NCBI RefSeq assembly: GCF_001949145.1
Contig: NW_019091478.1
Coordinates: forward strand, 802,408 to 833,379
Reading direction: 5' to 3'
Length of the DNA: 30,972 nucleotides
Source of the DNA: Acanthaster planci
Lineage: Eukaryota
This document shows positions 398 through 22,999 of this stretch, one piece after another. A program made the translations under genes and the position numbers. How positions within the stretch are numbered: position 1 is the first letter of the stretch; the number at the start of each line of letters is the position of its first letter. The notes under the pieces were generated by a model. That model was not told the origin of the DNA and made no database searches. It saw nothing but the letters and a program-made list of their open reading frames with translations.

Positions 398-516
398 GTT
401 AGTAGATTTCCTCGGCGGTCGCATGAAGTTGATTCTTCTCGTGATGATGATTGGGTCGGTAGGCAGTTGTGTTTGGTGTGTCTTGCTATCCATGCAGTAC
501 GTCGCGTTCAATTTAC
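398..516 (+). CDS. MFS transporter (SLC49/FLVCR-like), partial gene A, exon n-2; encodes (R)LVDFLGGRMKLILLVMMIGSVGSCVWCVLLSMQYVAFNL
   Basis: A CAG acceptor at 395-397 follows a pyrimidine tract, and a consensus GTAAGT donor sits at 517-522. The frame matches track ORF 342..692. The peptide is a transmembrane helix resembling FLVCR1 ...[30 protein letters not shown]. It is 119 nt long with the same intron phases as - strand exon 6283-6401. Confidence 0.7.
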
Positions 517-1124
517 GTAAGTGCACGGCTTGTGTCCCGCCCATACTTCCAAAATCTCATCCTTCAAGTTTAATGAAGAGTTTGCAAGGCTACCATCTGG
601 CAGGCCAACGCTTTTGTTCCATAGGATATGCACAAAGCAGGCCTCCTTGTGAAACAAAAGAACTACTCTGCGAGATGGCTACCACAAGGTAGCGCTACAT
701 GTAGGTCTACGACACAGTTGACCGATAACGTCATGAACGTACAAAGTGTCCTTTCTCTATGATACAACATGTTTATAAATGGCTACGAAGTTGTATAGTA
801 CGTGATAATCAGGACAAAAGTTTCAGGAAGATTAGTGCTTATGTAAAACCGCTTTTCCTGGCCAGTGGCGTAGCTAGATAGGATTTTACTACAGGGGCAC
901 AAAGGGGGCGCGGCACCACCATCTTACGCGGCCACCAGCTTTCAGTGGGGTGGTGTTTGGGTTTCACGTTTCCGTCAAGGAAATTTATTAAATGTGTATT
1001 GATGCATGGTTTTCACGTTTCCGGGTGGACAGAATTCTGAAAAAAAGTCTTTGGGGAAATTGACCGATTTATAGATGCTGGTGACCGTTGGTTTACTTTG
1101 GATTATTTTTTTGCCATTGCGTAG

Positions 1125-1307
1125 CGAGTTTGTACATCTCCTGTATCATCATTGGCTTCTTCGTGAATGCCTCCATCCCCATCTATTTTGAAGTCACTGT
1201 GGAGGGCATGTATCCCGTCTCGGAGGGGACCATAACGATGATCATGACGTGGCTCAACAACGCAGTGGTGCTGGTCTTCTTGCTGTTGCCACAGATAAAA
1301 GGCATAG
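1125..1307 (+). CDS. MFS transporter (SLC49/FLVCR-like), gene A, penultimate coding exon; (P)SLYISCIIIGFFVNASIPIYFEVTVEGMYPVSEGTITMIMTWLNNAVVLVFLLLPQIKGI(G)
   Basis: A TAG acceptor sits at 1122-1124 and a GTAAGA donor at 1308. The motif FEVTVEGMYPVSEG matches the FLVCR1 C-terminal helix motif [15 protein letters not shown]. Phase-1 entry fits the upstream donor. It is 183 nt, the same length as the paralogous - exon 5702-5884. Confidence 0.75.
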
Positions 1308-2122
1308 GTAAGAATTCAGATGACGATGAAACACTGCAAAATCGTTGGTGTAAATTAAACACCAGCAGGATCCATATGGGAAGGCACCAGACGTTTTGGT
1401 CGCGTACGTTAATTTGATACCAGTTCACAACCAAAGTGTCTTAAGTGATACGACTTGGGGCACAAGGTGCAGAGCTACCAGATGGAAATTTCGGGGAAAT
1501 AGTATACAAAAATTTGCTTTATTCCATTCCACTCATTCCATGAGTCTCACAGCCATTCACAACAGTTGTGCCTGTTCCCTGGGCTATGAGATCACTTTTC
1601 TGCAACAGCTCGAGAACAGTGCATGGCTTTTCGCTTGCCTCCTGGGAGAGAATAATTGTAGTCAAGTGTCCTACCTAGGGAACTGAAGCGCCGTGCGGGA
1701 ACCCTTGGGGTTCTAAGGCCTGCTTCAACCGTCGAACTGTTGCCGTGTGTAATTCAGTTTGCGCCGTTATCTGAGCCAGACACGGCAGAAGTTCGACTTT
1801 TAACTTAAAAGTTTTAAGCGGGCCTAACTCACATATCGTTCCGCGTGAGTTGAACACCAGAACCAAGTAGGCCATGCGTGCACGCTGGTATATTCTGTCA
1901 CTGCGGTGTTATGCTTGACTTCTGTACAGAACCCTAGTAATTAATTAACGAACAATATTTCACTGAACATTCATTTTTTGTGTGTAAAATTTGTGGCAAC
2001 TGTTTGACTTTGAATAATTGAAGATTTCTCCATCTTCAAGAGAGAAAGCTGGAGTCATATAACTCGGGCTAAGCAGGCGTAACTGATTCATGCTTGGCTG
2101 GTTTATGTTTCTGTTGTTCTAG

Positions 2123-2235
2123 GAGTGACGTGGATGAATTGGGTATTCCTTGGATCGGTGGTATTCTGTGTCCCACTACTCCTGATGTACAAAGAGCGTT
2201 ATAAACGGCTGAATCTCGACACCAAAGATGAATAA
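2123..2235 (+). CDS. MFS transporter gene A, terminal coding exon; (G)VTWMNWVFLGSVVFCVPLLLMYKERYKRLNLDTKDE*
   Basis: A TAG acceptor at 2120-2122 follows the pyrimidine tract tttctgttgttc. Entering with two bases completes the Gly codon begun at 1307. The stop codon TAA is at 2233-2235. The peptide is about 65% identical to the last exon of the - strand copy (GVIWMNWLLLGAIAVCIPLLMMYKEHYNRL...). Confidence 0.7.
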
Positions 2236-2236
2236 A
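2231..2236 (+). promoter_or_regulatory. AATAAA hexamer overlapping the stop codon of gene A (candidate polyadenylation signal)
   Basis: AATAAA spans the TAA stop. Many other AATAAA hexamers occur in the AT-rich 3' flank (for example near 2978, 3857, 3950), so the actual polyA site is unknown. Confidence 0.2.
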
Positions 2237-4509
2237 AGCAGATATTTTTAAAGTATGGGTTTAATGATGAAATATCAGTATTGAGCTAAGCTCTCGACGA
2301 TGAGTTTTCATTACTTCCAGTAATAACACCGGCTAAAGTTTAAAAACTTTCTTGTACCCACTTTTGGAAGAAGTGGGATGCATTGGGTTCTGAAAAGAAC
2401 CGGGCTTCGTACCGTTAAAAATGTGGGTACAAAAGTTTTCAAGCGCCTTTTTTCTCATGGTGCATCTCATCGCGAGAAACCTTTTACCGGTTACATTGTG
2501 CACATTCACAACTCACTGTTGAACCTTCGATCAATAAGCAGGCATCAGCCCTTTCTTAGAAGTGTTTCAGTAAATTCTGGGTTCACAATTTGAACAGAAA
2601 AAACCTATGCTCTGAACCATGTCTTCCTTAGATGACGCAATGGCAACAGCGCCCTCAGTTGTTTAGGAAAGCATGGATAATTTTACAATTTTTAAAAAGT
2701 GCATTTTTCAGTGCATTTAACCAAATAGGAATGTTAAGAGTTCTCACATATTGAAGAAGAGTACAAAGTTGCAGAAAAATTGTGTCTAAGAAATTTTCAT
2801 TGCAACTATAAAGTTATAAAATAAGAGATGAAAGATTCACATTATGCCACCAAAGGACTCTACTTGCTAACTTCTCTCAAAACGGTCTCACAAGTAGGTG
2901 TCGAGTGAGGTTTTGGCTGGGCATGGCATGTTTCTGAAATAATTTCCAACCTCATCAAATTTTGCCGCTTATTGCTAAATAAAAATGTCCCCCTAGACTT
3001 TACTTTTTGGGGGTCTTGTCTGAAGATGAGTTCTGCTTCTTTCTACAAGCAAACATGCAGGAAATTTTCTTTCATGACTCATAACGAGCAGATAAGGAAA
3101 GTAATTTGTAAAATGGAAATGTGAAACTTGGCTTGAAATTACAATCGTTTTAGTTTCACTTTTGAACACGGTATATAACTAAGTGTAGTGAAGGAAGTGT
3201 TGTAATTATACGAGTCTTTTAAGATGACTCTCAGCATTAAAACTGCCGGGCGCCCTCAAAACATGTTAACTGTGACATCTTGAATATAACACACTTCAGT
3301 TGGATTACGTTGCTTGTTTTAACATATTTTTTTCCGATAATTAAAAATCAAGAGTTTCGTATCAACTCTTTGTCTCCCTTAAAGTGCAAACTCACCTTTC
3401 ATCTTCAAAGAGTATTCCATGTCTTTACTTAGAATGTACGGACAAGTTGATATTGTACACTAAAGCAAAAAAAGACGCGGCAGTGTTTTCTCGAGAAAGA
3501 AATGTATTGCAATTTAATTCATGTTTTTTTTTAAGTTTGACAATATAAAGATCACATCTTCTCTCCACAGACCCATTAAAGATAAAAACATATTCGAAAG
3601 ACAGCCGATCAATGTATTAATAGATATATACCAGTGATAATCAAACGTGTGTCAAACCTGAATTGAAAACTGAATCACACAGAAATCCTTTAGTAGGGAA
3701 TCGATTGCAATGGCGACGTAAAGATACAAAAAACACGTAGAATATTTGTTTATATGTATATGGAGAGTATTTGAATGACACGAAACGCCCGGATTTCACA
3801 CTGCGGAAATTGCAGAAACTGCTTTAAAGGTCTTGGAAGCCACTTGGAAGCTTAAGAATAAACCAGGTATATGGTTATATTTCTCTACTTAATGGTTCAT
3901 TTTTATTTCCTTGAAAATCGATATTAGCACCGTACTAATCCCTGCTTCAATAAAACGATACATTTTGGGCAACCTTAGAATAAACTACGTAATTTTAGTG
4001 AGGTCTGCGTGAAATCTGCCTACGCCATTGTTGTGATGGAGGCAATGTTTTATTAACCAATTAAAATAATGAAGAAAGTCACGTGAATCAAAGTGACTGG
4101 CCACCATGTGAGTGGGTAACAAGCGACCGATTGGCAAGTCACCGATAGGAATAAAGGAGTAGATACCCAAGGTAACGTTACGATCCACCGTACTTATACT
4201 ATGTGGTCTTGCGAATGGTCAAATAGGATTGGCGTGGGGCGCCACAGGCGGGCAACGGGCTTAACAACAATGCTTTTATAATTATATAAAATCATTATGC
4301 CATTATTCTTGGAATTCTTACAATTCTGTGGAACGTGCAAAGATTAAAGAAATACAAAAGAAAAGAAAACAAAAAAGTCAGGTTTACTGAACCTAGGCGG
4401 AAGAAATCGAATTTTCTGTCCCTTGTGGTGGCAGAAAAACAAGAGACAAGAGGCATAATTCATTCTGGTGAAGAAACTCGTTAAATGCAACAGCAACTTT
4501 AACTCAACC

Positions 4510-4600
4510 CACTTGTGGTGTCGGGCGAGATTCGAACCAGAGCTGGCAAACCGTAAGGCGACTCTACCAGCAAAGTGAAACATGGTTGAGCCTGAAAGCT
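4510..4600 (-). mobile_element. tRNA-derived SINE-like fragment or tRNA pseudogene (A-box TGGTAGAGT, B-box GGTTCGAATCTC) in the intergenic region between the convergent MFS genes
   Basis: The - strand reads ...tttgcTGGTAGAGtcgccttacggtttgccagctctGGTTCGAATCtcgcccgacacca. Pol III A and B boxes sit about 30 nt apart, but no acceptor or T stems can be paired. Confidence 0.35.
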
Positions 4601-5214
4601 TTAACAGCCGCTCTACTCTCATTAGCAGATTCATGTCAACAGTGACTAGTGAGATGATGGCAAGATTTCAACGACTAAAAACCGCCACTAATGCTGAATA
4701 CATTGAAAGTCCGTTAACAAAAACATAAGCCTCGGGTTACTTAGAATTACTCTACATTTGCACATTTGTAACTAAACAAGTACCAAAATATCAGAAAAGT
4801 GCACCCAAATTACTGTCCAAAAGGCAATTTCTGTCCCCTGTCAAAGTGTCCTTGGAACGAAGCAACTTTTAGAATGTACAATGTTCTTAAAAAAAGGGGG
4901 TTGTAAGTGCTACAGGTTGCCCTTTAGCCAATCAGTGTAGCCAGTTATGGGAGGAGTGGAGAAGGCATCAAGGAGTAAAGTGGCTTGCTCAGGGACACAA
5001 CATGATTCAAACCTGAATTCAAACCTTATTGGGAGCCACAAGCTCAAACCAACAGGTCACACTGTCCTGAATACTGAAAGTGAACCAGTTTATACAGTCA
5101 ATAAACAAACTCTCTCAGTACTGCTTAGAAGGAAGTAAAATATCAAAACCACCGCTGCAAATAAGACTTTGAAAGCACAAGGCCACACTATTTGGAAGAC
5201 TACAACACTTTTCA

Positions 5215-5339
5215 TCAGTTTTGTATGCTGCTTTCCATCTTGTCTTCGTCTAAGCGATTGTAGTGTTCCTTATACATCATAAGAAGAGGTATGCACACGG
5301 CAATTGCACCAAGAAGAAGCCAGTTCATCCAAATCACAC
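5215..5339 (-). CDS. MFS gene B terminal coding exon; (G)VIWMNWLLLGAIAVCIPLLMMYKEHYNRLDEDKMESSIQN*
   Basis: The acceptor ccttatag|gt sits at 5341-5340. The stop codon TGA is at 5217-5215. It parallels + exon 2123-2235. Confidence 0.7.
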
Positions 5340-5701
5340 CTATAAGGCACAAAACGGTCACCGTTAATGAATATGCCCGGTGCTTTACATTACATTGACT
5401 ATTGAATATTGTAACCCTGCATGGAGAATTTTGTCAGACACATTGTACTCATTTTATTTTACTTTCCCTACATGGACCATCGATGGGCCATCGGTTTGTC
5501 TGTCACCCACGGATAAAGACTGGTTTATATATGGCGCGTAAGCCTACAACCCCGCAAAAGTCAGACTTCAAATCAAATCAAATATTCATGCATGATTTCT
5601 CATCGTCTTGAGATTTAAATAGATAACAGGAATAAACTGAAGACCTATTTAAACACTCACTTCCTGACTGCTGTCATCATCGATATTTTAGGTTAACGTA
5701 C

Positions 5702-5884
5702 CTATGTTTGGAATAAGCGGCAAGGCCAGGAATATGAGCGCGGCCACATTGTTGAGGTATGTCAGCACCATGGTTGTGTTACCCTCAGAGACAGGGTACA
5801 TGCCCTCCACTGTTATCTCGAAGAAAATAGGGGGTGAGGCATTGACGCAAACACCAATGATGATACAGGTGATGTACACACTCA
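5702..5884 (-). CDS. MFS gene B exon 9; SVYITCIIIGVCVNASPPIFFEITVEGMYPVSEGNTTMVLTYLNNVAALIFLALPLIPNI(G)
   Basis: The acceptor tatacag|tg sits at 5886-5885 and the GTACGT donor at 5701. The motif FEITVEGMYPVSEG matches the FLVCR-type motif. It is 183 nt, identical in length and phase to + exon 1125-1307. The frame equals track ORF 5688..6011. Confidence 0.75.
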
Positions 5885-6282
5885 CTGTATACAGGATAAT
5901 GCCAACAAGCCAACAAATGAAACACCGGGAATACTTGTTGCTATGACTTGAGAGGGTGGTCAATTCTCTTCTAGAGGCGGAAATAAATTTAATTTGGGGA
6001 GCCTGTGCCAAGTGTATGTTTTATTCCTGCAAAGAATATTTCACGTGCACATCTGGAACCCTCAAAGTGTTTCCGAAATCTACAGATTTCATTCAATCAG
6101 TGTCTTCAGAGCTTTGCAAATTGCTCAGGTAATTTCAGACCAGGAATAATTTTTGGCCATACATCGTTGAACAAAGAGCTGTAAATCATGCGAACAGCAT
6201 CACCATGGAACGCTGGAATTGCTTGCACAAATGAAATAATAGCAGCACAGACTTCGTTTTTGAGGTGTCCTCCATGACTTAC

Positions 6283-6401
6283 TTAAACTATAAGGGATGT
6301 ATCTCATTGACAGTAAGACACACCAAACACAACCAATGAAAGCTCCGGCAGTAAGCAATATCAGTACCGCCTTCATCCGGCCCCCAAGAAGGTCCACAAG
6401 T
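6283..6401 (-). CDS. MFS gene B exon 8; (R)LVDLLGGRMKAVLILLTAGAFIGCVWCVLLSMRYIPYSL(M)
   Basis: The acceptor ttgcttgccag|a sits at 6403-6402 and a GTAAGT donor at 6282-6277. It matches + strand exon 398-516 in length (119 nt), phase and sequence (about 65% amino-acid identity). The frame equals track ORF 6200..6466. Confidence 0.7.
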
Positions 6402-7034
6402 CTGGCAAGCAAAAGAAAAACATCATAATAGATTTGAGTTTGTTTTTTTAAAAATCCCCTCTTCAACCTTTTCGATACGGTTTACAGTTACAAGCTGGTG
6501 TACTTGGTTACTCAGAATTGTTAAATATATGTTATGGCTAAATTTAATTAATTGTGCTCGCATTTACATAACATCTCAATGTATATTGTTTTATGTAAAA
6601 CTGGACTCTTAACATGCAGTTGGCAAAGACAACTTTTTGGTTAATCATTAACTAGTTCAAGTCAAGTTAAACAAAGAAACAATGAATAAATGAAAGCGAA
6701 AATACATATTTGCCGAACCAATTTCAAATGGAAGCCCTGAAGGTGTGGGGGCAATAGAAGAAATCTTTTGAAACATTTGGGACTTAAAGGAATCGCAGTT
6801 CCGGACAATGAAAGTTCTAAATTCAATTGGCTGAGGCACGCTCCAGCATATCAATTACTGGTGTCTGGTGATATTTGGCTAAATGAAACGAAGCTTTGAA
6901 AGGAAAAGATGACTGTTCAGCAAAAAATGGGGTCACATGCTCAGCAGTATTGCCAGCTGGATACTTAAGGGCACTGGAGCATTGATTCTATTTCTATAGT
7001 GACTCCATAATTTTTCATTTGCCCCAAAACACAC

Positions 7035-7102
7035 CTTGCGATCACCAAGCCTGCCAACATTCCTGCAATATTGGAGATGAATCCAATCCAGCCAACAGTG
7101 TC
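7035..7102 (-). CDS. MFS gene B exon 7; DTVGWIGFISNIAGMLAGLVIA(R)
   Basis: The acceptor tttcag|g sits at 7104-7103 and the GTGTGT donor at 7034. IAGMLAGLVIAR followed by LVDLLGGRMK in the next exon aligns to FLVCR1 [18 protein letters not shown]. The phases are 0 in and 2 out, consistent with both neighbouring exons. Confidence 0.6.
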
Positions 7103-8235
7103 CTGAAATGGAAATGAAATTACAGTCAATTGAGTTTTTCTTCTTGAAGCAGATTGCGTTCAGTTCCCCCCCCCCATGCCTTGTCCAATGACAAATAGAT
7201 TAAAACCGTGGGGTGTACAGAAGTAGAGTTGAGGTAGACAAACAGGGAATTATGCAGGTACGGTACCACGTATCGATGTGCACAACACATCCATCCTTAG
7301 AAATAGACTCACAGGCGCTCATCACAAAATGCGAATAGTTATTATCACATTAAAATGTGGCTGCGATTCATGTTTCGTCAAACAATTTTTTCAGCAATCT
7401 TACACTCTTCTTCAATGTAAGGAAACTATTTTGGCATTCAATATTAGGTTAAATGCATTGAAGAGTGCGCCTTTTAAAAACATTACAAAACACACAAACA
7501 CCAATTTTGCTTTCCTGGACAACTGAGGGCGCCAGGCTGTGATGTCATCCAGAGAAGGAGTTACCATTTCAGTGCATAGATTTTTGAGCTCAAATTGTGA
7601 ACCTACAATTTACTCACTGAAGACATATCTGAGAAAGAGCTGTTTGCTTGCTTACTACTTGTACTTACACAACAATGAATCATCAAAGAAAAGAAACTTA
7701 AGGTTTAGGCTTGTATTAAAAAGAACTTTCCACTGCTGCCACCTAAATGTAGAGATTAATTAATTGAAGATTGTCAAGTGCATGCACAGAAAAACAAAAG
7801 GTTGAAAGGGTAGCAATAATCATTTTTGGCTGCAGGTCGTTCGAAAGAATGGCTAGAAGCGATGTCAGTCTACACTACAAAAATTCTGGTTTTATCAGAG
7901 GACCATTCCAACCTGTTTCACCGGTGTTAACATAGTTGGAGCTTTTTAAAACAGTTGGTGTTACTTTTAACACCCTCCAGTGCACTGTAACACTTGAAGG
8001 TGTATACGTAACACCAGCAGTATGAAAGTAACACTTTTTGGTGTGGTCATCTGACAACACCAAAATGTGTTGTTTCTAACACCAGAGTTTTTTCAGTGTA
8101 TGTGTATTGCCACATTACAATGACAAATTGTTATTTTTTTTTTGAGCTACAAGTCAATAAAAAATGTCATTGTTCAAGCCAGACATGCTTGAGCATCTTC
8201 CTTCCAAAAGATTACATTATTGGCTTATTTATTAC

Positions 8236-8347
8236 CTGGCCTATATCGAGAGTAGTTTTAAAAATTGTGTCTTGTTGTGTGCTCCAGCCACCATACACCC
8301 CACTAGATATGCTATAAGCTGCTGCAGTAATCCAAAACTGGGCACTC
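8236..8347 (-). CDS. MFS gene B exon 6; (K)SAQFWITAAAYSISSGVYGGWSTQQDTIFKTTLDIGQ
   Basis: The acceptor tatacag|g sits at 8349-8348 and the GTAATA donor at 8235. It resembles FLVCR1 [27 protein letters not shown]. The frame equals track ORF 8212..8421. Confidence 0.6.
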
Positions 8348-8940
8348 CTGTATACCAAAATAAAAGCTGAGTGTAATTCTACTGACAAGAGGTTGCAGGG
8401 CCAGGCATGCTGTTCGTCCATTTCATGAGGCAGGGTACGACAAACAGGTCAGCCATCTTAGCTCACAATTGGGGGATCGCTGGTTCAGCCTGAGTGCTAT
8501 GTTTATGAGAGAGACAGATCTGATGAGTTACGGTCGGTTTGGGCGACGCAGTATAGGCTCTAGATTTTACATCAATCAAGTGGTGGTTGCGACTGATCAA
8601 TCTTCAATCTGCACAATCAATTGAGAACTCCCAGGACTTGGTTGTTCTATTCAAATTTTAAAAATTGTCAACAACCCCGGATTTAATGGAATAAAACACG
8701 ACCGGCTTCTGGCAGACAGACTGACCCAAACGTGCGCAACATTATTACTGTAGTTTTAAGACACAATATGATAGTCCAAGGCATTTATGAAGTCACTTAG
8801 TCTTGTTTGCTTGCATTTCGACACTTCCCTGCATCAACCGTGAAGTCAGGTTAAATTCTACATATATTCTGACAGCTGTCATTTCAATCACAAATCTGTT
8901 CACGCATCTTTCGAAATCCTGCCCTTTTCGCCAGACTAAC

Positions 8941-9111
8941 TTGATCATCTTCAGGGCCCCATCTTTGAAGCTGTCCCTGGGTCTCGTGGCGGACAGGCTC
9001 GGTGAAGTCGGCGGCTTCTCCGGAAAGTACAGGAGCGTTGCTACGACTACAACGGCTGTAACTCCGCATTCTGAGAAACAAACATGCATTGCATAGATTG
9101 GCAAACCCTTA
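8941..9111 (-). CDS. MFS gene B exon 5; (S)KGLPIYAMHVCFSECGVTAVVVVATLLYFPEKPPTSPSLSATRPRDSFKDGALKMI(K)
   Basis: The acceptor AG at 9113-9112 is chosen so that one-base entry matches the upstream phase-2 donor. This gives ATLLYFPEKPPTSP, matching FLVCR1 GGVATLLLILVIIVFKEKPKYPPS. The exit must be phase 2 with AA|G completing Lys. That forces an unusual donor, GTTAGT, at 8940-8935. Confidence 0.5.
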
Positions 9112-9719
9112 CTTCACATTTGCATATAACTAGAAAACATGGTCCTTCTCTCTACATCTAGGCAAACCTATATGCACCAGTATAATGTAGACTCATACAT
9201 ACCGTACCTATATACATTAACCCCATTATTTCACTGAAAGAACGAGTCCGCTCATCCGGATCGAGAGGTTCAGTGCTGAAATAAATCATATAATGCAAAT
9301 TTTGCTAATTGAGTTCTTTTTGTTTCAATGTTGAGAATCAAAAGACGCAGAGACTGAAAACATTATGTGAATAAAAAGTGGGTGACGTGCTTTCTGTTAA
9401 ATGTTACACGCAAAAAAAGGAAAAAACGCATGTAAAAATGCATTGATTAAAATACTCTACGGCATTTTAGATATTCTTATTGGTCGAGAGCCCGTGAAGT
9501 GGCTGGTCTTAAACAATGATTTTTACCAAATTAAAACAAACAAAATGAAAAAATTTACTGCAAAGAATATTAAAATGAAAACTTTGAGCAAGTTTCTCCA
9601 ACCCTTGTGTTAAAAAACCTCATTGTGAAAACCTGTTCAACCAATTGGGAAAACATTGCTCTTAAAAAGCAGAAGGAATTGAAAGGCCACATTCACAAAG
9701 AAGAAAAAGCAGTTTTTAC

Positions 9720-9920
9720 CTTGAATTTTGTGGAATACTTGTTACGATCAATGGTCCGACCAGGAAGGACGCGGACATGCCAAGAAATGCTGCAGTAGTC
9801 GAAATAGCCGTGGATGTAGTCCGCTGGTGAGGCGGGAACCAGACGGCTGACACTTCAGTCGGGGCCGACATCATGACTGGGCCAGCAATGCCAATACAAA
9901 CATGGCCAGCATTCATTGTC
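9720..9920 (-). CDS. MFS gene B exon 4; (W)TMNAGHVCIGIAGPVMMSAPTEVSAVWFPPHQRTTSTAISTTAAFLGMSASFLVGPLIVTSIPQNS(S)
   Basis: The acceptor ttattgtag|g sits at 9922-9921 and the GTAAAA donor at 9719. It aligns strongly to FLVCR1 [39 protein letters not shown]. The frame equals track ORF 9716..9916. Confidence 0.7.
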
Positions 9921-10930
9921 CTACAATAACCCCCAAATACACGTACCTCGTTAAAGATAAGGGTGATGGTAAAATTTCAGTATGCACATTTTCAAACTGG
10001 TGTACATGTAAGACATTATATACAAACTTCAAGATTATTTAAACAAATATAATGCATTGTTGTTCCTTTGTGGCATTTATTCAAATCCACCCTAATGCAA
10101 CTTCTAGTTTAATACGTGATTTACAATTGTCTTTGTTTCTAACAATATTGTAAATTTAAATCACATTCCTCTCTTAACCTAATCTAAAATGCACATACAT
10201 GTACATGTGTACCATGATACATGTATGTTTTCCCGTGGCCATTTTTCAGTATATATATTCATTCGAATTCACAGATTTATATTTTCAAATTTCTTCAACC
10301 TGAGTTGATTTTGTGCAGTTGCAATGTTAACTATTTCTGGTCCAAACTTATGTTGGGTTTAAGATGGGCAGACAGTTTCAGTGAGGAGTGTTTTAGTCTC
10401 GCTTTCCTTTTGAAAACACGCTACTTTCATTCTACATGAATGAATGTACATTCATTCTACATTCAGATCACAGAATTTTGTTCCATGCATCAGCTGTCGT
10501 CTTCCCTGTTGCCGGTGCTCTTGTTTGTTTTAAATCTAAGATGATTTTATGTTTTAGGGTATTGTCAATATTTTCACTTACAGTGTTCTTGACATGCTTG
10601 AGAACTCAGGAACATGCTTAATTACGCACAAGACTAATTCATTAAAGAAAGCGTACCCAAGTGACTGATACAATTTGAATTTGATCTCTGAATGTTGTCA
10701 TTCGGTCACAATATAGACAACTTTCATTTGAAATGACAAAGTTTCTAGACACATGGTGTTCATAATGACCAAGCTTTGAAAATGATGGTTAATGAAACTG
10801 GGTTTTTCAAATACATGTACCGTACATGTAGCCCGTGAATTCATTTTATGCAAGAATTAATGAATAATGTTTCAAAATAGTCGGGAAAACTTATGGTTTA
10901 TACACTGCTCTGGGGTCAATTTCATAGAGC

Positions 10931-11161
10931 TGCTTAAGCACAGAATTTGCTTAAGTGTGAAAAAACCTTGCTTGACAAATCAGGTTACTAGCCAAAACTC
11001 CATGTGAAGTACATGTACATTGCTTTGGAATGGTATTCACCTGTCTTTTGGTTAGCCTAACAATCACATAGATTTTGAGCTCATAACCTTTCATTTTTAA
11101 GCAAGGTTTTTTTGTGCTTGAAGCCCTGCCTTCAAACATTGAAACAGTGATGGAATTCACC
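10931..11161. mobile_element. MITE-like hairpin element with a 14-bp perfect inverted repeat (AAAAAACCTTGCTT at 10959-10975 and, as reverse complement, 11096-11115) inside a longer imperfect inverted repeat of about 25 bp, plus short direct repeats GG(T/A)ATTCACCT at both ends
   Basis: Found by direct comparison of 10949-10978 with the reverse complement of 11095-11131. It contains the palindrome TGCTTAAGCA. It lies in intron 3 of MFS gene B. Confidence 0.35.
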
Positions 11162-11269
11162 TATAAACTTCTGAAAAAGTTCTGATTTCAATATGATTTT
11201 TAAATACACGGGGGTTAGGGTTAAAGGAACCATGCATAGTCAGTTCTAGGTGATGTGTGTTTCTCTTAC

Positions 11270-11360
11270 CACTTCAAGTTGTCTATACCGACAGGAAGGC
11301 ACCGAATGCCGAGTCCTAAGAGGAAGATTAGGGAACTACACAACACACAGTAACGAAGAC
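11270..11360 (-). CDS. MFS gene B exon 3; (G)LRYCVLCSSLIFLLGLGIRCLPVGIDNLK(W)
   Basis: The acceptor tttacag|gt sits at 11362-11361 and the GTAAGA donor at 11269. It resembles FLVCR1 [24 protein letters not shown]. The exit phase of 2 matches the phase-2 entry of the 9920 exon. No ORF in the track covers it because it is under 60 codons. Confidence 0.6.
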
Positions 11361-11980
11361 CTGTAAATCGAGAGGATGTAGAATTTTGGCACATTATTCT
11401 CTTTTTATTTGTATAGCGTTAAGTTCTCTAAGGTCAAAAAAGTCTCCGGCTCTTGGTCGGCGGTGTAATTTGGTTTAATATGATGTCCGAAGCTTCTACA
11501 CTTGCTTGATCGACTGGAATCCTACTCCTGCATAATTTTAATGTGTTTTAGATTGGATACGGCTGAGTAATATGTACTGTTGAGCCCCTCTAGGCCCCCG
11601 TACACTGACATCAGTTTTGTATCATACATTTACAATTGGGAACCAGACAAAAGAGGTGGTCTAATGTCCTTGTACGCGTACATCTGCAAGCTGAAAATGC
11701 TTCTATACAGTAAACAGTGAGGGGCCAGTTTATTTGTGTGTTAGTAGCAGTTGCAATGGACATCGCACATTATACATGTATGTACATCATTTGAAGGGAA
11801 AAAAAGTGAGGGGGAAAAAAAAGCTGCATCGCCGCACTACTTTTGGAGCCAGCCCCTGACCAGGAACCAGAGACCTTTTTGGCCTAACAAAGAGTAAATT
11901 GGTACGTTTTGGAAGTACATGTATTCTGAAAAATGGTGTTGAACTGTTTATCCTCACAAGCAGTGCTGGAGTTGAGTCCA

Positions 11981-12062
11981 TCACAAGTCCCTTCACAAAT
12001 CCCTTTCACAAGTCCCTTCACAAATCCAGTCGCAAAGTCCCTTCACAAGGCCAGTCACAAGT
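11981..12062. repeat. Minisatellite with about 8 copies of an 11-bp unit TTCACAARTCC (equivalently a 21-23-bp unit CACAAGTCCCTTCACAAATCC in 3.5 copies)
   Basis: The sequence reads tcacaagtccc ttcacaaatccc tttcacaagtccc ttcacaaatcc agtcgcaaagtccc ttcacaaggcc agtcacaagt. Confidence 0.8.
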
Positions 12063-12475
12063 AACAGAGTGAACAATGACAACAGAATGCTTTCGTCAGA
12101 GCTCATTTGAATATTTGATGAATTGGCTTGAGACTGAAAGACTTGTGATTGACTCGAATACAACACTGTTCATGAGGTTGAACGACTTAATGCTCACCTG
12201 CTGTGGGATAAATGTTATGGTGCATACAGTTGGGGCAGGGAGAAGTTGCCTCCCCCGGGGGTGAATGTTGCCACTTTTAGGAACCGAAAGTGCCAACATT
12301 TCAGAAATGATACTACACTCTACCACTTTTCAGGAGGCCGAGGATTCTTTTGAATATGATTAAAAATACAATTCCAGTTTTCCCTCGAGTCAAAACTTTG
12401 ATGAGTCACAGGTTAAATGAGTGGCTATTTCAATTTGTATAAGCAAAAATGTAACAAACTCATGCTCATACTCAC

Positions 12476-12586
12476 CTTTGACCAGGAGCAGATAAGAGAA
12501 CAGAAAACCTGTGATTACAAAGGAGATGGGGCCCCAGTTTGTTAACAGGGCTATATCGCTGTCTGTCCAATTTAACACCACCTTAA
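12476..12586 (-). CDS. MFS gene B exon 2; KVVLNWTDSDIALLTNWGPISFVITGFLFSYLLLVK(G)
   Basis: The acceptor tttccag|tt sits at 12588-12587 and the GTGAGT donor at 12475. Phases link exon 1 (g + tt = Val) to exon 3 (g + gt = Gly). It is a hydrophobic helix pair like FLVCR1 [26 protein letters not shown]. Confidence 0.6.
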
Positions 12587-13497
12587 CTGGAAATATGAAA
12601 AAAAGTCATTGTTTGAGGTTTACATGTATCTACAATTCCAGGGGACCTGTTAATTGGTAAGGCGTCCTTGTATGGATAATCATATAATATTACTGGGACA
12701 TCCCACTCCGTTCTTTTCAGCTTTCTGAATACTGTTCTCATAAACAATCTCCAAAATGTCAAAGCTCGGGGATACACTAATCACTATACCAGGTGAAAAA
12801 ACCTAAATGGATTTAATTTGACATGCTTGAATTAAAGATATTTTACAATATGGCAAAAAATCTCACAAATACCAATGTTTCCTCAGAAATACAACGCAGT
12901 CGAATGGGCCTTTTTACAGCACTGACCTGTGAGGATATCTACACCTCGACAATGCATATTTGCATTTTTTTAATCACATTACAAAATGGCAAAATTTGGG
13001 GCCCTGTAAATGTACGGTCACAGACACCGGTATAAAGGTGGATACCGAAGATGTTGCTAAATTTTTAAGGGTCAGATGCCTTCATGGGCCGATGTGTTCT
13101 TATTCCTCCATAATACATGGTACTGCACTTTGGGGGACTGGGAGACGAAGAGTTACTAAAGTGTTCAGAATTTAGGCCAACCATGCAGATGGGCAATCTG
13201 GCTAAAGTTAAGTGTTGGGTGTGAACAGGTATTAAATAAATTTTTTAAAAAGTTTCTTTTCCCCTTGTGGTGGTTTATAAGCCACCAGAAAGTGATAAAA
13301 TGTCCTAAAATGTCAAATTTAGATACAAGTGAAGATATGAGTATTCAAGCCTTCACTTAAAAAACACTATTGGGTTTGTGCACAGTAATGGCCGTGTAGG
13401 AAACTCTATCCTTTTATGCAGCCTGATGACACAGTTTAATGTGAAGTCTAGTCAACTCCACACTTAAATTAAGTCTTGAAATTCGGAGGTAACAAAC

Positions 13498-13744
13498 CTG
13501 TGTCTGCAATAGGTCCCCATGTGTTCCATGTGGCTGCTTGCAGGGCACAAAGCAGCGAGAAGACGGCCAAGATGAACCATCTCGCCGGGTACGCTTCGTG
13601 TTGTGCCCCTTCCTGTTTGTCTGTACCCTTTTTCAAGCTGCGTGTCTGGGGGTTCTGGTTGACAGTGCTGTATTTGCTCCCGTGTACGTGTAGGCGTGTA
13701 TCACTCGGTGCCGCAAAGGACACCAAGGGGTCGGTTTCTGCCAT
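13498..13744 (-). CDS. MFS transporter (SLC49/FLVCR-like) gene B, first coding exon with ATG; MAETDPLVSFAAPSDTRLHVHGSKYSTVNQNPQTRSLKKGTDKQEGAQHEAYPARWFILAVFSLLCALQAATWNTWGPIADT(V)
   Basis: The ATG at 13744-13742 is the first one after an in-frame TGA at 13777-13775. The segment YPARWFILAVFSLLCALQAATW aligns to FLVCR1 [21 protein letters not shown] (first transmembrane helix). The donor G|GTTTGT at 13497 is phase 1, compatible with the next exon. It matches track ORF 13469..13744. Confidence 0.65.
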
Positions 13745-15040: not shown

Positions 15041-18000
15041 CAGGAAACAAATTAAGATCAAAACAAAAAATAAATTAGAAAAATGCAAAAGAAATACAAA
15101 GGGAGAGGAGCATTACCAATTTGCTTAAAGACATCAAAATTGACCCCATCCACTTAAATGGTTCATCAGATCGCCGCTGATGAGTACTTTGCTCCTGGAA
15201 ACAAATACCCTGGAAATAGTGCTTTGCCCCCGGATTAAAATCCTATCCACACCCATGAGTAGGTATTTTCCTTACATAGGAAAACTCCCACTGTTTACGC
15301 AGTTCGAAGTTCCACAGCTTTCATTGTCCGTCTAATTACCAAAGCTTTTGCAGGAAGAATTTAAATTCTGGATCACTTTGAAGAGTTAAAAACAATGGGT
15401 TGTAAAACATAATTACCTACTTCAGCCTGTTTTTGAATGGTTGGTCAATACAGATCACGAAGTGGACAGACTTTGCCGATAGAAATTATCGCGAAGAATG
15501 TTTGAACGTCAAGCTAGCAACGATAAAATCTTCCCAAATCAGTAAAACTCTTAAACAGAATTAGTCTTTTACATATTACTATTATTTATTAAACCAAAAA
15601 TAATCTAATACAGTCACCAAAGGCGTAACAGTGATACAGATTTATTTCAATAAAGATTCTCTACATGGAAAGATTACAATCGGAGACCACACTTTTATGG
15701 GAATATTTCAGACTAACATACATCTATAAATTTCTCTACCAGATAGATATTTGAAGGAATTAAACAATAACAAAATATATGCATACATGTATTGCAACTT
15801 CAAAACATACTGTGCCTTAGTCTTCAAATTCCAAAATTTAACATTGGTTTCCTCATCAAATGAAAATAGGTATGTTAAAATGAACTAATGTATGATTTGA
15901 TCAACTCCAGAGAAAAACAGACGTACCAGATTACAGGCATTTTTCATGAATTTGAGTTACAGAAGTTTTTATATATAAAAACAGGAACACTGAGGCTATA
16001 TTAGAAAGGTAAAATCTTGGTCTTCAAATACACAACTTGTTGATATATACCTTCTATGTCAAGACACTCACTCTGACAAGGCGATGGTCCAGAAATCTGC
16101 AAAAATCTGTCTGCCATTGCCGACACCTGATGAAGAGAGATGCAGAATTCTAAGAAACTTTTCTAACCTTGCAGGTTGGTATGGACTGCTCATCCCCATC
16201 TTCGTTTTTCTTTCTCAAATCCTTCATCCCAATACCTTACATTATCTTTATATCCCCACTGACTTGAACTTTGAACCTTTGGTCATTCGACTCCAACTGT
16301 TTTTTTGTTACCTCTAAGGCCACTCATGTTCCACCAAAGGATGGAGTTGACCACTAAGCAACCACCTGTGCCCTAGGCAAAAGTTCACCCCAAGTAGAAG
16401 AGAAAGATCTAAGCTAACCACAGAGTAATTTGGTACATAAATTTCCTTATTCATGTGGACCATATGCATGACTGGATTGACAGAGAGGCTAGGCTTGGCC
16501 ATTTTTCCGGCCAGAGCTTTTGCTCCACAGAGATACACAATTTGAATCTTTTGTGCTATCTCTTCCTGACAAAAGCAGTTACCAGAAAGATGGCTGCCAT
16601 GCACAACTTTTATTAGATTCCCACTTCGCTAACTTAAACAGAAATGTCAAACAGTAGACAACATCCAAGTGCAGCCTCACTTTTCTTGGGCAATACCATG
16701 TCAACAGCGAAAGAATATACGATCTATTCATGCACTGCAATACTATACAAAATCAGTAACATCAACAGAAAAAAATGTCAAACCTCAGATTGACTATAAA
16801 AAGAATTGGATCTGTTTGAGAACATGGTTGTCATTTATCAAGCTTGAAATCATTCATTAAAACTCTAATCTGATGCCTTTCTTTTTCATGCTAAAATCAC
16901 AAGATATTTTTGACCTTTGTATCTTAACAATGTTCCCCAAAAGAAAGTGCAAATGTTTCGTTACAGCAAACCGAGCAACCTGTTTCAAAATACAGAATAT
17001 TGCAAATACTAAATGATGTCCGTAATACCTAAAACACATGTACAAGTACATGTACATTGCTTCAAATTCTAGACAAATGCACACAGTGCCAAACAAAATA
17101 AACGGAGCTTACTTGTTACACTTTAACCGCTGGCCCTCTTGGCCTATTGACCTCTTAAGAAACACTGAGTACCATATTGAAAGAAATTATTTGATATAAA
17201 TTTCAAAGGTTACATAGAAAAGCTTTATCTAATGCATTTAACATCTTCACGATGAGCTGCTATAGTTTGAGTGTGATTCTCCATCTTGCCGACTCAGATT
17301 TTCTCTGCGGACCTACTGCGCCAATCCAGGAAGTAAACGTTCCCCAGTTTGTCCCCGCATATCATCTCTGTGCTGTCGGAGACTGGAGATGCGGTAACCG
17401 TGGTAACAGGAGCCTGGCAGTAAAACTGACCAACCTGGAAGACACAAAATTGGAATCACAGGCAATAGCTTCTTCCATACATAGTTAAGACCAGAGAAGC
17501 AAACTTTTCAAAATGAATAAGTGTAATCCTATATCGCACTTCCAGTTCCGGTTTTCCGACCGACCCTAATTTTTCGGACCCCAAAAACTTTCATCGGCAA
17601 ATTAGAAAAACAATAAATTATTTTTTTAAAGTCCTGTGTCTTTTTCTTTCTATACAAACAAATGTCAACAACTTCTTTTCACATCAAAACACTGTTCATT
17701 ATAATGATAATTGGGGCAAACTGATGATTCAACGAAGCTGGTTTCTGCCCCTACTCAAGAGTCCCATATGCACCAACTGTGGGATGCCTGCAACACATTC
17801 CTGACACGCGCATTAAGAGGCCAGCTCTGTGCTAGCTTACATAGAGTTTATACATAACTGTATGGTTTGTACCTTAGCGAGTCTGGATCGCATATTCGTA
17901 AATGGATTAAACAAATCGTAAAAATTACGCCTAAATTGTACAAGTTGGAATCTATGTCAGACAAATACTTTCCAAAAAGCAACTCAGAATGCTGAAACGA

Positions 18001-19529
18001 TGACTTAAGACAAGTGTCTGCTTTTATGCTAGCTACAGAGGGAAGTTTTCGGGAAGTTTGAAGGTGCAACAATGAAGGTATATGGCAACATTTTCACCAC
18101 AAGATATATGTGGCAAGTCAGGTAGACTGGGCAGAACACCTGTGCTGCCTGTTCACTGTTCTGTAACGGCATCTATGAAATATGACAGTTGTATGTTTGA
18201 AATAATTTTCCCTCCTTTGTTTATTTTGGACATCAGTGGTCAAAAATGGACCAAAAGGGATGGACTTCCCCCACCCCTGTGGAGGATGAGGCTGTTCTTC
18301 CATGCATAACACTTTCCTATGATTGATAATCACTGTCTAGCAAAATTATGATGTCAATTTTTTTTCTCCACCTGACCCTGAAATTTGAGAACTAAATCTG
18401 AGAAGCATACGGATTTGGAGCACACATTACCTGTTTCAGATTCTTTCTAGACCACAGCTTGAGGGCGCTGTCTTCTGAAGCCGTGCAGATTACATCATCA
18501 CAGACAGCAATATCATGAACAGCACTTGTGTGAACCTGTTTCGAGAAATGTAAAACTTAATCTTCGTTTGCTACTGAAACTGCATAAAAAACTGATGACT
18601 TTAACCCTAAAAGCAATGGGGGGGGATCTGCCCCCTTCACATTTTTTCAGTATCTCCGCAGTGCATTTTTTTTTCAGGAGCTGAGCCTTTAGGAGTTTTT
18701 AGACTAATTCTGTGTGGTCATTTTGAAACCAATTTTGAGAAAAATCTAACCTACCGTTCTCGTACAGCACCTTTTTTTCTGTGAAAGGTCGTAAAAAAAT
18801 GTATACTGTTTCCACTGCGGTGCTCAAAGCACGCGGGCTGGCATGCATGGTAGCCATGAACTTCAAATGACCGTAACAACAAAATGACACATTTAGTTGA
18901 TTTCAAACTTCACTTTGGTTATGCTAATGAGTGTCTTCCCATGCATGCCAAGTTTAAGAAAAACAAATCGAGCGTGGCACAGCTGAGTTTTGGGGGGGGG
19001 GCCCGAATCCACCCCACCCAGCTGAGAGACTGGCCAAATTAACCCAGCTCCTTCAAGGTTTAACTAGCTGAAAATAAATAAAAGCTAACAATGGCCAAAG
19101 GAGCAGTCTGAAAGACTGAAATTTAAAATTAATGAACTATTTCTCGAGTTTACATCACAGGCATTTGAATAAAAGTGCATTTTTTGGTACATTTTGAAGT
19201 GTGACATTGGTTTTACAGTTGCAATACAGGAACAAGAAAGTTGGAATTCTGAAAGCAATGCTGTAATTTGGGATAATATGTGAGTAGATCTCAAACGGTT
19301 AGCCCTTAAGGCCTTCCTCCAGTAATTTTGTTTTTGTTTACATCAGAAAGAGCTAGAAGAGCTTTTTCGTTTGGAGGGTCACTCATTTTGGCATCCTCTT
19401 GGAAACTGAAACTTAGTGAGAGAAAAAAATGTTGAGGGCTCCTACTGACTTCCACTTTGCTAGATCCTTGTACAGCGCTTGATCTCAAAAGTGGCAGTGT
19501 TGACTTGCGCCTTATTTCGTTAGGTTGGG

Positions 19530-19835
19530 TCACACATGCATCCTTTTTTCGACTGCAACATCAGTACCACTTGACGAAGTATGCCTCTGCTGGCGTACCT
19601 TCTTCCTGGCAATGACTTCATCCGTCATCACGTCGCACACCGTCAAGTAGCCCTTGGAATCGCCAGTCAGCACGGCCCTGTTCTTGCCGCTGACCTTCTC
19701 CCCGAGACCAAGGGTCTTGCCGCTTCGTAGCTGGAGCCCGGTGCAGGCGTGGACCCAGCAGGGCTCCTGGTAGCCCACGGACTGCTCCTTGGTGGAGGGG
19801 TCGACGATGCTTAACTTGGAGCTCCTCTCCAGCTC
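19530..19835 (-). CDS. WD40 gene terminal coding exon W18 (about 62% GC); ELERSSKLSIVDPSTKEQSVGYQEPCWVHACTGLQLRSGKTLGLGEKVSGKNRAVLTGDSKGYLTVCDVMTDEVIARKKVRQQRHTSSSGTDVAVEKRMHV*
   Basis: The acceptor tgtttcaactccag|g precedes it. The stop codon TGA is at 19532-19530. The start is given in ORF-track coordinates, where codon E54 of ORF 19530..19994 begins at 19835. My own character count of the displayed text puts it at 19836 because of an apparent extra G in a G-run near 19797-19801, so treat the 5' boundary as +/-1. Confidence 0.6.
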   Translation of the reverse strand, partial: ELERSSKLSIVDPSTKEQSVGYQEPCWVHACTGLQLRSGKTLGLGEKVSGKNRAVLTGDSKGYLTVCDVMTDEVIARKKVRQQRHTSSSGTDVAVEKRMHV

Positions 19836-19863
19836 CTGGAGTTGAAACAGAAGAATACAAAGT

Positions 19864-19980
19864 TCATGCTCACACTGGGTCATTTTGTCAAAAAATTTCC
19901 ATTCTTTTATCTGCTCACATTCATGCTCACAACGGGTCATTTTGTCAAAAAACATCCATTCTTCCATTCTTTTATCTATC
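19864..19980. repeat. Tandem duplication, 2 copies of about 58 bp (tcatgctcaca(c/a)(t/c)gggtcattttgtcaaaaaa(t/c)(t/a)tccattctt...ttttatct), in the last intron of the WD40 gene directly upstream of the terminal-exon acceptor
   Basis: Copy 1 spans 19864-19920 and copy 2 spans 19921-19980 at about 88% identity. Track ORF 19530..19994 reads through it, giving the repeated EWMFFDKMTRCEHEC / EWKFFDKMTQCEHEL. Confidence 0.8.
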
Positions 19981-20106
19981 GGTGAAATAGTCAATTTCTT
20001 TTTGTCTCTTCAGAAAAATTCTTGAACAAGCAGCACTACTTCTTGCCACAACAAAAAAAATATTAAAGAAAAGATGTGCTTCAATGTATTCATGATGGAT
20101 ACGTAC

Positions 20107-20212
20107 CAAATTCTTGAAGTGCTGGAGTTCCCCGTTGGCAAAGCTGGCAACTAGAGTGTTGTCTTTGAGAATCTTCAGATCCAGAACCCAGTCGGACGGT
20201 TCCTCTGACCCT
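20107..20212 (-). CDS. WD40 gene exon W17; (R)GSEEPSDWVLDLKILKDNTLVASFANGELQHFKNL
   Basis: The acceptor cttgtttcttcag|a sits at 20214-20213 and the GTACGT donor at 20106. Confidence 0.55.
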
Positions 20213-20592
20213 CTGAAGAAACAAGATTTTATGATTATATGGCCTTGATTTCCCCCTCAACAGTTACTGGCTAATATTCCAGCACAGCTCCATCTGTGTA
20301 GCTCAGTAATATGTCAACAGCAATGCTAATCAAACTGAGGTTCCCAAGCTTTTGGACCATGGTCCTCCCTACGGGGTCGTTCTCGCACGTGGAGAACTCC
20401 ACATTCAGTGCGCAAAATATTAATTGATACAATTACTTTATTACTTACATATTATCCTGATTAGCAACAGTGATCAGTGCTGTACAAATCCTTGCATTTT
20501 ACTTTGTTACATTTAACAAAGTGAAGTGTGTATGCTTAAAGCATTCTTCCATCTGCAACTACACAGATATTTGGGGCATAGACCTAGTGTAC

Positions 20593-20748
20593 CTTTGATG
20601 AACCCGGCGGGTCTTTCCAGAGTCACAGCGGAACATGCAAATCATGCCTGACCAATGACCTGTGTAGAGGCTATCCCTTAAGGGGTCATAGGTCATGCAG
20701 GTCACTGGGCTCTTGTCCTGGTCAGCGGCAAACATAGTCTTCCGATAT
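20593..20748 (-). CDS. WD40 gene exon W16; (P)YRKTMFAADQDKSPVTCMTYDPLRDSLYTGHWSGMICMFRCDSGKTRRVHQ(R)
   Basis: The acceptor tgtttctttag|a sits at 20750-20749 and the GTACAC donor at 20592. The frame equals track ORF 20559..20762. Confidence 0.55.
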
Positions 20749-20894
20749 CTAAAGAAACACAAAACTTAATTAATCAGTAACAGTTCATTTTTTTTGTAAT
20801 GAATCATGAATTCTCCACACTAAAGAAATGTTCTTTTTTCTCTGGTCCATAAAATTTTGTGACATGTTTCCTTCTGTCACTCCAAAATACTCAC

Positions 20895-21025
20895 GGTACT
20901 CTATATGCTGTATTGGGTGGGGTGGGGGCTTCGATCTCCCACACTGTCACAACACCCTCATCAGAACCCAGAGCAAACCTGGTATTACCCAGGAAGGTGA
21001 CAGAATTTATAGCCTTTTCCGCCAA
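20895..21025 (-). CDS. WD40 gene exon W15; LAEKAINSVTFLGNTRFALGSDEGVVTVWEIEAPTPPNTAYRV(P)
   Basis: The acceptor ttttgctttcccag|t sits at 21027-21026 and the GTGAGT donor at 20894. Confidence 0.55.
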
Positions 21026-21219
21026 CTGGGAAAGCAAAATAAGATTGGCATTAATTTGCATACATGTATTTGAAGCAGTGGAATTAAAAAAAAAAGTAAA
21101 TTACCACATAAATCTTTGGAGAGCTGAAGTCCACATTTTGTAATAAGAAAGTCAGATATTTCACAGCAAGTTAGCTAACAAGAAGAAAAGCAGAAGCTCC
21201 AAATAGTTCATTTTTATAC

Positions 21220-21301
21220 CTTGCTTGAAAACACCATCTTGGGAAGGGCATCGGCGGATGAATTCTTGTCTGGCATTTCCCACACCATTACTTCACCACT
21301 C
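21220..21301 (-). CDS. WD40 gene exon W14; (R)SGEVMVWEMPDKNSSADALPKMVFSSK
   Basis: The acceptor tttcgtgcag|g sits at 21303-21302 and the GTATAA donor at 21219. It completes the blade VSTSRSGEVMVWE. Confidence 0.55.
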
Positions 21302-21673
21302 CTGCACGAAATGAAACATCAGCAAGAAATGGGAAAAAACATGAAATCTTGAAATTGAACTGTGACTATCTTCTTTCCCCAACAAACTTAGTAAATTTTG
21401 CAAATCTTGCCCAATTATCACGACAGGCCCTATTTGACTAACAAATTAGTGATCCTCAAATCAGAAACATTCAAGATAAACTTTTGCCTTGTTTCATTGA
21501 CCAATAGGGTGTCATGATTTGCCAAATGCACGGGCGCGTCAAGCTTAAGAATGTGTGGCTGCAGTCATGGCGTCTCCTTGGATTATTGTATAAATATGTC
21601 CTTAATTTGGTAGTGCCTGAGCGTTGCAGCAAGCCATTACAAGATTAGCCATATCCCTATCCCATGCAACTAC

Positions 21674-21765
21674 CTGCTGGTGGAGACTGCAAAGGTGCCC
21701 TTTGTTGAGTACGCTGTGCTGGTCACTTCTCCATTGTGGCTGACAGACAGGATCTGAGCCTCAAG
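21674..21765 (-). CDS. WD40 gene exon W13; LEAQILSVSHNGEVTSTAYSTKGTFAVSTS(R)
   Basis: The acceptor ttccccctcag|c sits at 21767-21766 and the GTAGTT donor at 21673. Phase 2 out matches W14. Confidence 0.55.
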
Positions 21766-22188
21766 CTGAGGGGGAATAATTACGAATGCATCACAGTGGA
21801 TTAAGATATTATGCATCCTGCAGAAATGAACAAACAAGCTGCTCTGGCAAAAAGGTTGTGTTTCCTATTTTCCTTACTTTGACTGCTTGAGCATAAAAAT
21901 TGAGGGGGGGGCGATTTTGGGGAAATGTGGAATTGGAGATGAAGGAAAAAGGTGTGTACTTTAGTTTGAATGGGTGCAAAGAAAGTTATTTCCTCTTTAA
22001 TGAGTCTTCTCTCAAAATGTTTCTTGCCATGCCCAAAAAGTAACATCTTCCTTACCACTCTAGAACTGAGGTTTTTCTTTGAATGGTCAAAGTGTTTTGA
22101 CTGAAAGTCTCACTCTCCAAAGTTAACTGAGGAAGTTAGCAAAAGGGGTAATACTCCAATCTTCGAGCACCCTGCCTTGGGGGTTTAC

Positions 22189-22308
22189 CTTTGGTGTCCA
22201 GATCTTCACCGTCTTGTCCAGTGATCCTGTGATGATATCACCTTTGCCGGACACGGCTACAGCCACCACACTGTCCGAGTGACCACTCAATGATGCCATC
22301 TCGTTGCC
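22189..22308 (-). CDS. WD40 gene exon W12; GNEMASLSGHSDSVVAVAVSGKGDIITGSLDKTVKIWTPK
   Basis: The acceptor aattgtctccag|g sits at 22310-22309 and the GTAAAC donor at 22188. It is a textbook WD blade. The frame equals track ORF 22123..22338. Confidence 0.7.
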
Positions 22309-22801: not shown

Positions 22802-22999
22802 CTGCCGCCAAAATGACCAAATTCACAAATGCACATGAATGCTTATAGAAATTCCGGCTCTTGTTTTTGGAAATTGTCAAACTAAAGGCCAACAGCAAAA
22901 TTGTTCAAGGCCACATATGCATTTGAAAATTTGGTGAATGTACCAGTTGTTATTTCATGACCCCTATAAATTGATTTAATCTCTCCTGAGTTCCTTAGA

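Follow-up and report, generated by a model that had tools for sequence, protein, structure and literature searches.

We analyzed a stretch of 30,972 nucleotides (nt) of Acanthaster planci DNA (contig NW_019091478.1, positions 802,408 to 833,379), which is called the window in the following. It consists of intron-bearing eukaryotic DNA with a guanine plus cytosine (GC) content of about 41% and carries two intact paralogous genes of the major facilitator superfamily (MFS) that belong to the SLC49 family. The minus strand gene is designated copy A; copy B is the plus strand gene, of which the last three exons lie inside the window. Both genes are arranged tail to tail, with the stop codon of copy B ending at 2235 and that of copy A at 5215. 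The exons and the spacer between the genes are listed below from left to right.

398–516, plus strand: copy B exon 9 of 11 (numbered by homology), 119 nt, open frame with AG and GT borders; end of transmembrane helix (TM) 8 and TM9
1125–1307, plus strand: copy B exon 10, 183 nt; TM10–TM11; inverted-repeat arm I1
2123–2235, plus strand: copy B last coding exon, 113 nt, stop codon TAA at 2233–2235; TM12 and C-terminal tail
2236–5214, no strand: spacer between the stop codons, 2,979 base pairs (bp), 37.7% GC; holds both 3′ untranslated regions (unmapped) and repeat fragments
5215–5339, minus strand: copy A exon 11, 125 nt, stop codon TGA at 5217–5215
5702–5884, minus strand: copy A exon 10, 183 nt; inverted-repeat arm
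6283–6401, minus strand: copy A exon 9, 119 nt; inverted-repeat arm
7035–7102, minus strand: copy A exon 8, 68 nt
8236–8347, minus strand: copy A exon 7, 112 nt; skipped in predicted isoform X2
8941–9070, minus strand: copy A exon 6, 130 nt
9208–9275, minus strand: copy A exon 5, 68 nt; skipped in predicted isoform X2
9720–9920, minus strand: copy A exon 4, 201 nt
11270–11360, minus strand: copy A exon 3, 91 nt
12476–12586, minus strand: copy A exon 2, 111 nt
13498–13744, minus strand: copy A exon 1, coding part, 247 nt, ATG at 13744–13742; disordered N-terminus with an ETDPLV motif, and TM1

The last three exons of both copies match each other in detail. Lengths of 119 and 183 nt as well as the intron phases are equal, the six exons of the shared part have AG acceptors and GT donors throughout, and the first donors read TTTAC/GTAAGT in copy B and TTTAA/GTAAGT in copy A. 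Each exon set contains a single open frame, and the encoded peptides are homologous, with 82 of 133 amino acids (aa) identical (62%) in a gapless alignment. At the nucleotide level the three exon pairs share 60%, 70% and 55% identity. A tblastn comparison of the A protein with the three B exons gave expectation values (E) of 1e-20, 8e-12 and 2e-10, indicating a likeness far beyond chance. In a repeat search of the window the A/B exon pairs were the sole two inverted repeats reported, and tblastn at E ≤ 10 revealed nothing credible in the window as a third copy or fragment. A preliminary description of this DNA had proposed a tail-to-tail pair of paralogous SLC49 transporter genes with identical exon lengths and phases and similar donors, which the exon coordinates, splice sites and database matches described below bear out. 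Its estimate of 60–70% amino acid identity narrows to the value given above. The 3-kb distance between the facing stop codons was correct as well, while the AT-rich character ascribed to the spacer is mild, its GC content being slightly under that of the window. Scans for transfer RNA (tRNA) genes with ARAGORN and for Rfam families were empty, spacer included. A tRNA-like 3′ half with GGTTCGAATC is located in the spacer at about 4500–4580 on the minus strand, uncalled by both programs and possibly a remnant of a tRNA-derived short interspersed nuclear element.

Copy A was assembled by reading splice sites off the sequence. Its 11 exons extend from 13744 to 5215, all introns are of the GT-AG type, and the open reading frame of 1,455 nt encodes 484 aa, not the 475 aa previously counted. 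The assembled protein is 100% identical to the A. planci RefSeq entry XP_022100526.1 ('disrupted in renal carcinoma protein 2 homolog isoform X1'), which is annotated on an 866-kb scaffold. A second RefSeq isoform, X2 (XP_022100527.1, 424 aa), corresponds to an exact skip of exons 5 and 7 (68 + 112 = 180 nt). It reads exon 6 out of frame and loses the TM7 region. If real, this isoform is probably non-functional. The translation of copy B inside the window is the exact C-terminus of RefSeq XP_022100532.1 (502 aa, same scaffold as copy A). Copy B is therefore no fragment; it is the 3′ end of a full-length annotated gene, the first eight exons of which lie to the left of the window.

As suggested in the preliminary description, the assembled copy A protein was compared with the Pfam profile MFS_1 (PF07690), which it matched with 76.2 bits against a cut-off of 33.4 (E = 3e-21, residues 65–433 of 484). 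An AlphaFold2 model built from a 26-sequence alignment (predicted local distance difference test score, pLDDT, 86; predicted template-modelling score, pTM, 0.84) displays 12 long helices between residues 55 and 465, following a disordered N-terminus of about 45 residues. A crude hydropathy scan with 8–9 peaks lacked the necessary resolution and is superseded by the structure prediction. Foldseek returned 461 PDB matches at E ≤ 0.001; among the matches listed (best 50 of 461) all were MFS transporters, the top 12 being FLVCR1 and FLVCR2 (SLC49A1 and SLC49A2) with E of about 1e-18, followed by the next MFS family at about 5e-10. PDB matches at the sequence level were to FLVCR1/2 alone (E = 7e-22 to 6e-16). 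By sequence and by fold, FLVCR1/2 are thus the nearest solved structures, with TM-scores of up to 0.93 normalised to the target, and the copy A model superimposes on outward-facing FLVCR2 with a root-mean-square deviation of 2.1–2.3 Å. Membership in the SLC49 family and the 12-TM MFS fold are common to FLVCR1/2 and the starfish proteins.

Within the family, the comparisons assign both copies to a different subfamily. In a phmmer search copy A reached 302 bits with fish SLC49A4 (36% identity, 456 aa) versus 81 bits (about 23% identity) with human FLVCR1; overall, FLVCR1/2 are about 21–24% identical to copy A. The named homologues, from crinoids/echinoderms to fish, are all SLC49A4/DIRC2. A tree of 26 SLC49A4 homologues, built by neighbour-joining from 452 columns with 200 bootstraps and without SLC49A3 sequences, placed both copies inside the deuterostome SLC49A4 group. 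On these sequence criteria copies A and B are classified as SLC49A4/DIRC2 orthologues and not as FLVCR1/2-type proteins, so that the term FLVCR-like used in the preliminary description holds at the family level only. Best hits and tree agree on orthology to human and vertebrate SLC49A4 (DIRC2), the lengths are similar (460–500 aa), and family motifs such as WNTWGPI, WFPPHQRTT and PIFFE.TVEG.YPV.EG are conserved. Where vertebrates have one gene, at least four paralogue clades exist in Acanthaster, and members of two of them are neighbours here.

The same tree was used to date the duplication. Copy A grouped with Patiria miniata P0003 and P0004 and Asterias rubens P0005 (100%), copy B grouped with Asterias P0012 (100%), and clades A and B were sisters (100%). 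Two more starfish clades, C and D, were obtained. The Patiria clade-B gene P0044 is 84% identical to Acanthaster copy B over the whole length, and Asterias P0012 is 65% identical. Between copies A and B, the proportion of synonymous differences (pS) was 0.80 and thus saturated, and that of nonsynonymous differences (pN) was 0.22; since this pS is above the Jukes-Cantor limit, pN and pS replaced the ratio of nonsynonymous to synonymous substitution rates (dN/dS). Third codon positions are 42% identical, and beyond the exons the likeness of the copies is lost within a few bases. All these values are in accord with an old duplication after which purifying selection acted on both copies. The tree topology dates the A/B duplication as ancient, before the split of the Acanthaster/Patiria lineage from the Asterias lineage. 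Acanthaster and Patiria belong to the Valvatida and Asterias to the Forcipulatida, two orders whose split is of the order of 200 million years old. A recent inverted segmental duplication does not agree with similarity confined to exons, with fully supported orthologues of each copy in other species and with saturated synonymous sites.

The common intron positions, real as they are, are not special to this pair. The exon chains of Asterias B, Asterias A and Patiria A comprise 11 exons each, and internal exon lengths of 111, 91, 201, 68, 130, 112, 68, 119 and 183 nt recur in clades A and B of the three starfish. Exceptions in length are exon 5 of Patiria A (74 nt) and exon 10 of Asterias B (186 nt). 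The intron positions reflect a family-wide 11-exon structure and are no sign of a recent duplication.

To compare the arrangement of the genes, loci of Patiria miniata (JADOBP010000013.1, about 1.055–1.135 Mb, segments L003, L004 and L005) and Asterias rubens (LR699094.1) were inspected. Patiria L004 contains the B gene and, after about 3 kb, a clade-A gene on the opposite strand. The window and this segment are collinear exon by exon with 75–87% nucleotide identity; copy B exon 9 is 86% identical to 15600–15731 and exon 10 is 85% identical to 16164–16354 of L004. In Asterias, by contrast, B (plus strand) is followed after 2.7 kb by A (plus strand) in head-to-tail orientation, and the right-hand neighbour is a Ribosomal_L14 gene, for which no match was found in the window. 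Patiria differs from Acanthaster, which has one clade-A gene, in having at least five. Most of these follow each other head to tail and one is inverted; per exon they are up to about 98% identical. Identity between Patiria and Acanthaster is 84% for B, a single gene in Patiria, and 73% for A; the two paralogues thus differ in copy number as well as in evolutionary rate. A blastn comparison of the Acanthaster, Patiria and Asterias spacers gave no match as evidence of non-coding conservation, nor did tblastx find any when the right part of the window was compared with the sequences flanking the Patiria B gene and the Asterias pair.

Because Patiria shares the tail-to-tail layout while Asterias has the genes head to tail, an inversion took place at some point. 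Tail-to-tail genes with a spacer of about 3 kb are the state of the Acanthaster/Patiria lineage, and B followed by A head to tail is that of Asterias; the two states are separated by one inversion of one gene after the duplication. The flanking genes give no usable synteny with Asterias that would indicate the ancestral orientation. On prior grounds only, we slightly prefer a direct tandem duplication, with the inversion occurring later in the Acanthaster/Patiria lineage. The competing explanation, tentative but to be taken seriously, is that the segmental duplication itself was inverted and placed the genes tail to tail from the start, the Asterias order then resulting from a later re-inversion. 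The layout and the spacer length in two species agree with it, and placing the single inversion in the Asterias lineage requires no more events than placing it in the Acanthaster/Patiria lineage. However, Acanthaster and Patiria form one lineage, so that their shared layout amounts to a single observation, and most of the A copies added later in Patiria stand head to tail. This is also the usual orientation of newly arisen local duplicates, which again counts against an inverted origin. Moreover, the absence of likeness outside the exons leaves no junction or inverted flank as evidence. The inverted segmental duplication put forward in the preliminary description is thus not substantiated, in view of the age of the duplication, the restriction of similarity to exons, the saturated synonymous sites and the Asterias gene order.

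Predictions on function were derived from the orthologous human protein. Human DIRC2 resides in the lysosomal membrane, mediates H+-coupled pyridoxine transport and carries an acidic dileucine motif of the type [DE]xxxL[LI], E10-RQP-L14-L15 (PMC9719028). Copy B contains D10-TKP-L14-L15, which fits this motif and stands at the equivalent place in the N-terminus; [DE]xxxLL is also present in most homologues. In copy A (13744–13721, minus strand) the corresponding sequence is E3-TDP-L7-V8 with a valine (GTG) in place of the second leucine, and its orthologues keep both leucines (ETDPLL or ETDALL in Patiria, DRDSLL in Asterias). This replacement makes lysosomal sorting of copy A uncertain; it may be polymorphic, may weaken the lysosomal signal or may have no effect. 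By orthology, each protein would be a 12-helix MFS carrier of the rocker-switch type, the N-terminal acidic dileucine signal would probably direct it to lysosomes or endosomes, and it would probably export a small metabolite from the lumen by H+ symport, pyridoxine in the case of human DIRC2. At about 36% identity, copies A and B are probably H+-coupled exporters of small metabolites from acidic organelles/lysosomes. A search for literature on echinoderm SLC49A4/DIRC2 found no co-mention with echinoderm terms among its 10 top-ranked papers.

The asymmetry between the paralogues allows a more far-reaching but unlikely scenario, in which starfish expanded SLC49A4, a lysosomal transporter otherwise present in single copy, into four old clades, copy B with its canonical dileucine signal is the conserved 'housekeeping' lysosomal copy, and the faster evolving, copy-variable A, having exchanged the second leucine for valine in Acanthaster, could shift partly to the plasma membrane and acquire a new uptake role.

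Very improbable is a function of A and B as FLVCR1/2-like plasma membrane transporters of choline/ethanolamine or heme with the substrates split between the copies, as considered in the preliminary description. The proximity to the FLVCR1/2 structures speaks for it, and a preprint connects zebrafish slc49a4 with heme and erythropoiesis (PMC13484576). The choline/ethanolamine site of FLVCR1 is formed by W125, Q214, F348, Y349 and Q471, which are required by the FLVCRs (PMC11168923). At these positions copies A and B have W/W, G/A, Y/Y, G/A and N/N, respectively. The tryptophan of TM1 alone is kept, a further point in favour of an FLVCR-like role, but four of the five residues are changed, and the FLVCR substrates heme, choline and ethanolamine are for this reason not transferable to A and B. 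Both copies are the same or near-identical at the five positions, giving no hint of substrate divergence at the ligand site, and subfunctionalisation for heme or choline/ethanolamine is without basis. The bit scores favour SLC49A4 over FLVCR1, and copy B carries the lysosomal dileucine signal of DIRC2, whereas FLVCRs are found at the plasma membrane. That copy B might be a truncated pseudogene fragment of a partial duplication, an option favoured by the visibility of just three exons in the window and by the absence of an exon 8 homologue from positions 1–397, is hardly credible and is refuted by its three open exons with canonical splice sites and a stop codon, by their identity to the end of a RefSeq model with a full N-terminus and full-length Patiria and Asterias counterparts, by a pN far below pS, and by the length of intron 8 (633 nt in copy A, longer in orthologues), which puts exon 8 to the left of the window.

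The best explanation for the locus, with a probability of roughly 0.85, is that copies A and B are intact neighbouring SLC49A4 paralogues, which arose by local duplication in the starfish lineage, were kept adjacent and under purifying selection, underwent one later inversion, and by orthology probably serve in lysosomal H+-coupled export. Several points weigh against this explanation. The starfish-only node uniting the four starfish clades reached 71%, in a tree calculated by neighbour-joining only. Both gene models are computational, coming from our own assembly and NCBI prediction, and the 5′ exons of copy B lie outside the window, exons 1–8 being known from the protein model and not from DNA. 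The ETDPLV sequence of copy A deviates from the canonical dileucine. The low identity of about 36% to the characterised human/fish protein makes the substrate inference weak. Finally, zebrafish slc49a4 crispants and morphants showed an erythropoiesis defect, accompanied by in-silico heme binding, in the 2026 preprint mentioned above (PMC13484576), so that the SLC49A4 substrate is unsettled even in vertebrates.

A large WD40 gene with several propellers occupies the right part of the window with its 3′ portion (17296–30972, minus strand). Its open reading frame pieces match the Pfam WD40 and TEP1 beta-propeller families, of which Beta-prop_TEP1_C reaches the cut-off, and five exons within 17296–20761 align at 81–92% nucleotide identity with the 3′ end of a Patiria gene that encodes 2,707 aa. 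Judged from these matches, it is probably an orthologue of telomerase protein component 1 (TEP1), located head to tail upstream of copy A. The large WD40 gene is also a neighbour of the Patiria SLC49A4 array.

Three pairs of repeats were observed in addition. The members of a diverged inverted pair (69% identical over 279 nt) are situated at 2535–2783, in the spacer on the downstream side of copy B, and at 7382–7654, within intron 7 of copy A. These positions are non-homologous within A and B, and the pair therefore most likely represents an interspersed mobile-element family and not a part of the gene duplication. A direct repeat of 104 nt with 76% identity, which has one copy in intron 2 of copy A (12044–12147) and the other in the WD40 gene region (28531–28634), is probably another interspersed repeat. 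The WD40 gene region also contains two direct 44-nt copies at 19863–19906 and 19920–19963, which are 91% identical and spaced by 57 nt.

RefSeq already lists both transporter genes and names their family correctly, and their arrangement is that of an ordinary old local duplicate pair. Beyond annotation the significance is small, and nothing here should surprise a specialist. Our analysis adds that the genes form an old pair of the starfish lineage that was kept adjacent, and not a recent inverted segmental duplication, that the orientation of the pair differs between starfish lineages, and that substrates of the FLVCR type should not be assumed. SLC49A4 is poorly understood even in vertebrates, with pyridoxine export described in human cells and a heme/erythropoiesis phenotype in the zebrafish preprint. 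A lineage with four diverged SLC49A4 copies could serve as a small natural experiment for structure-function work.

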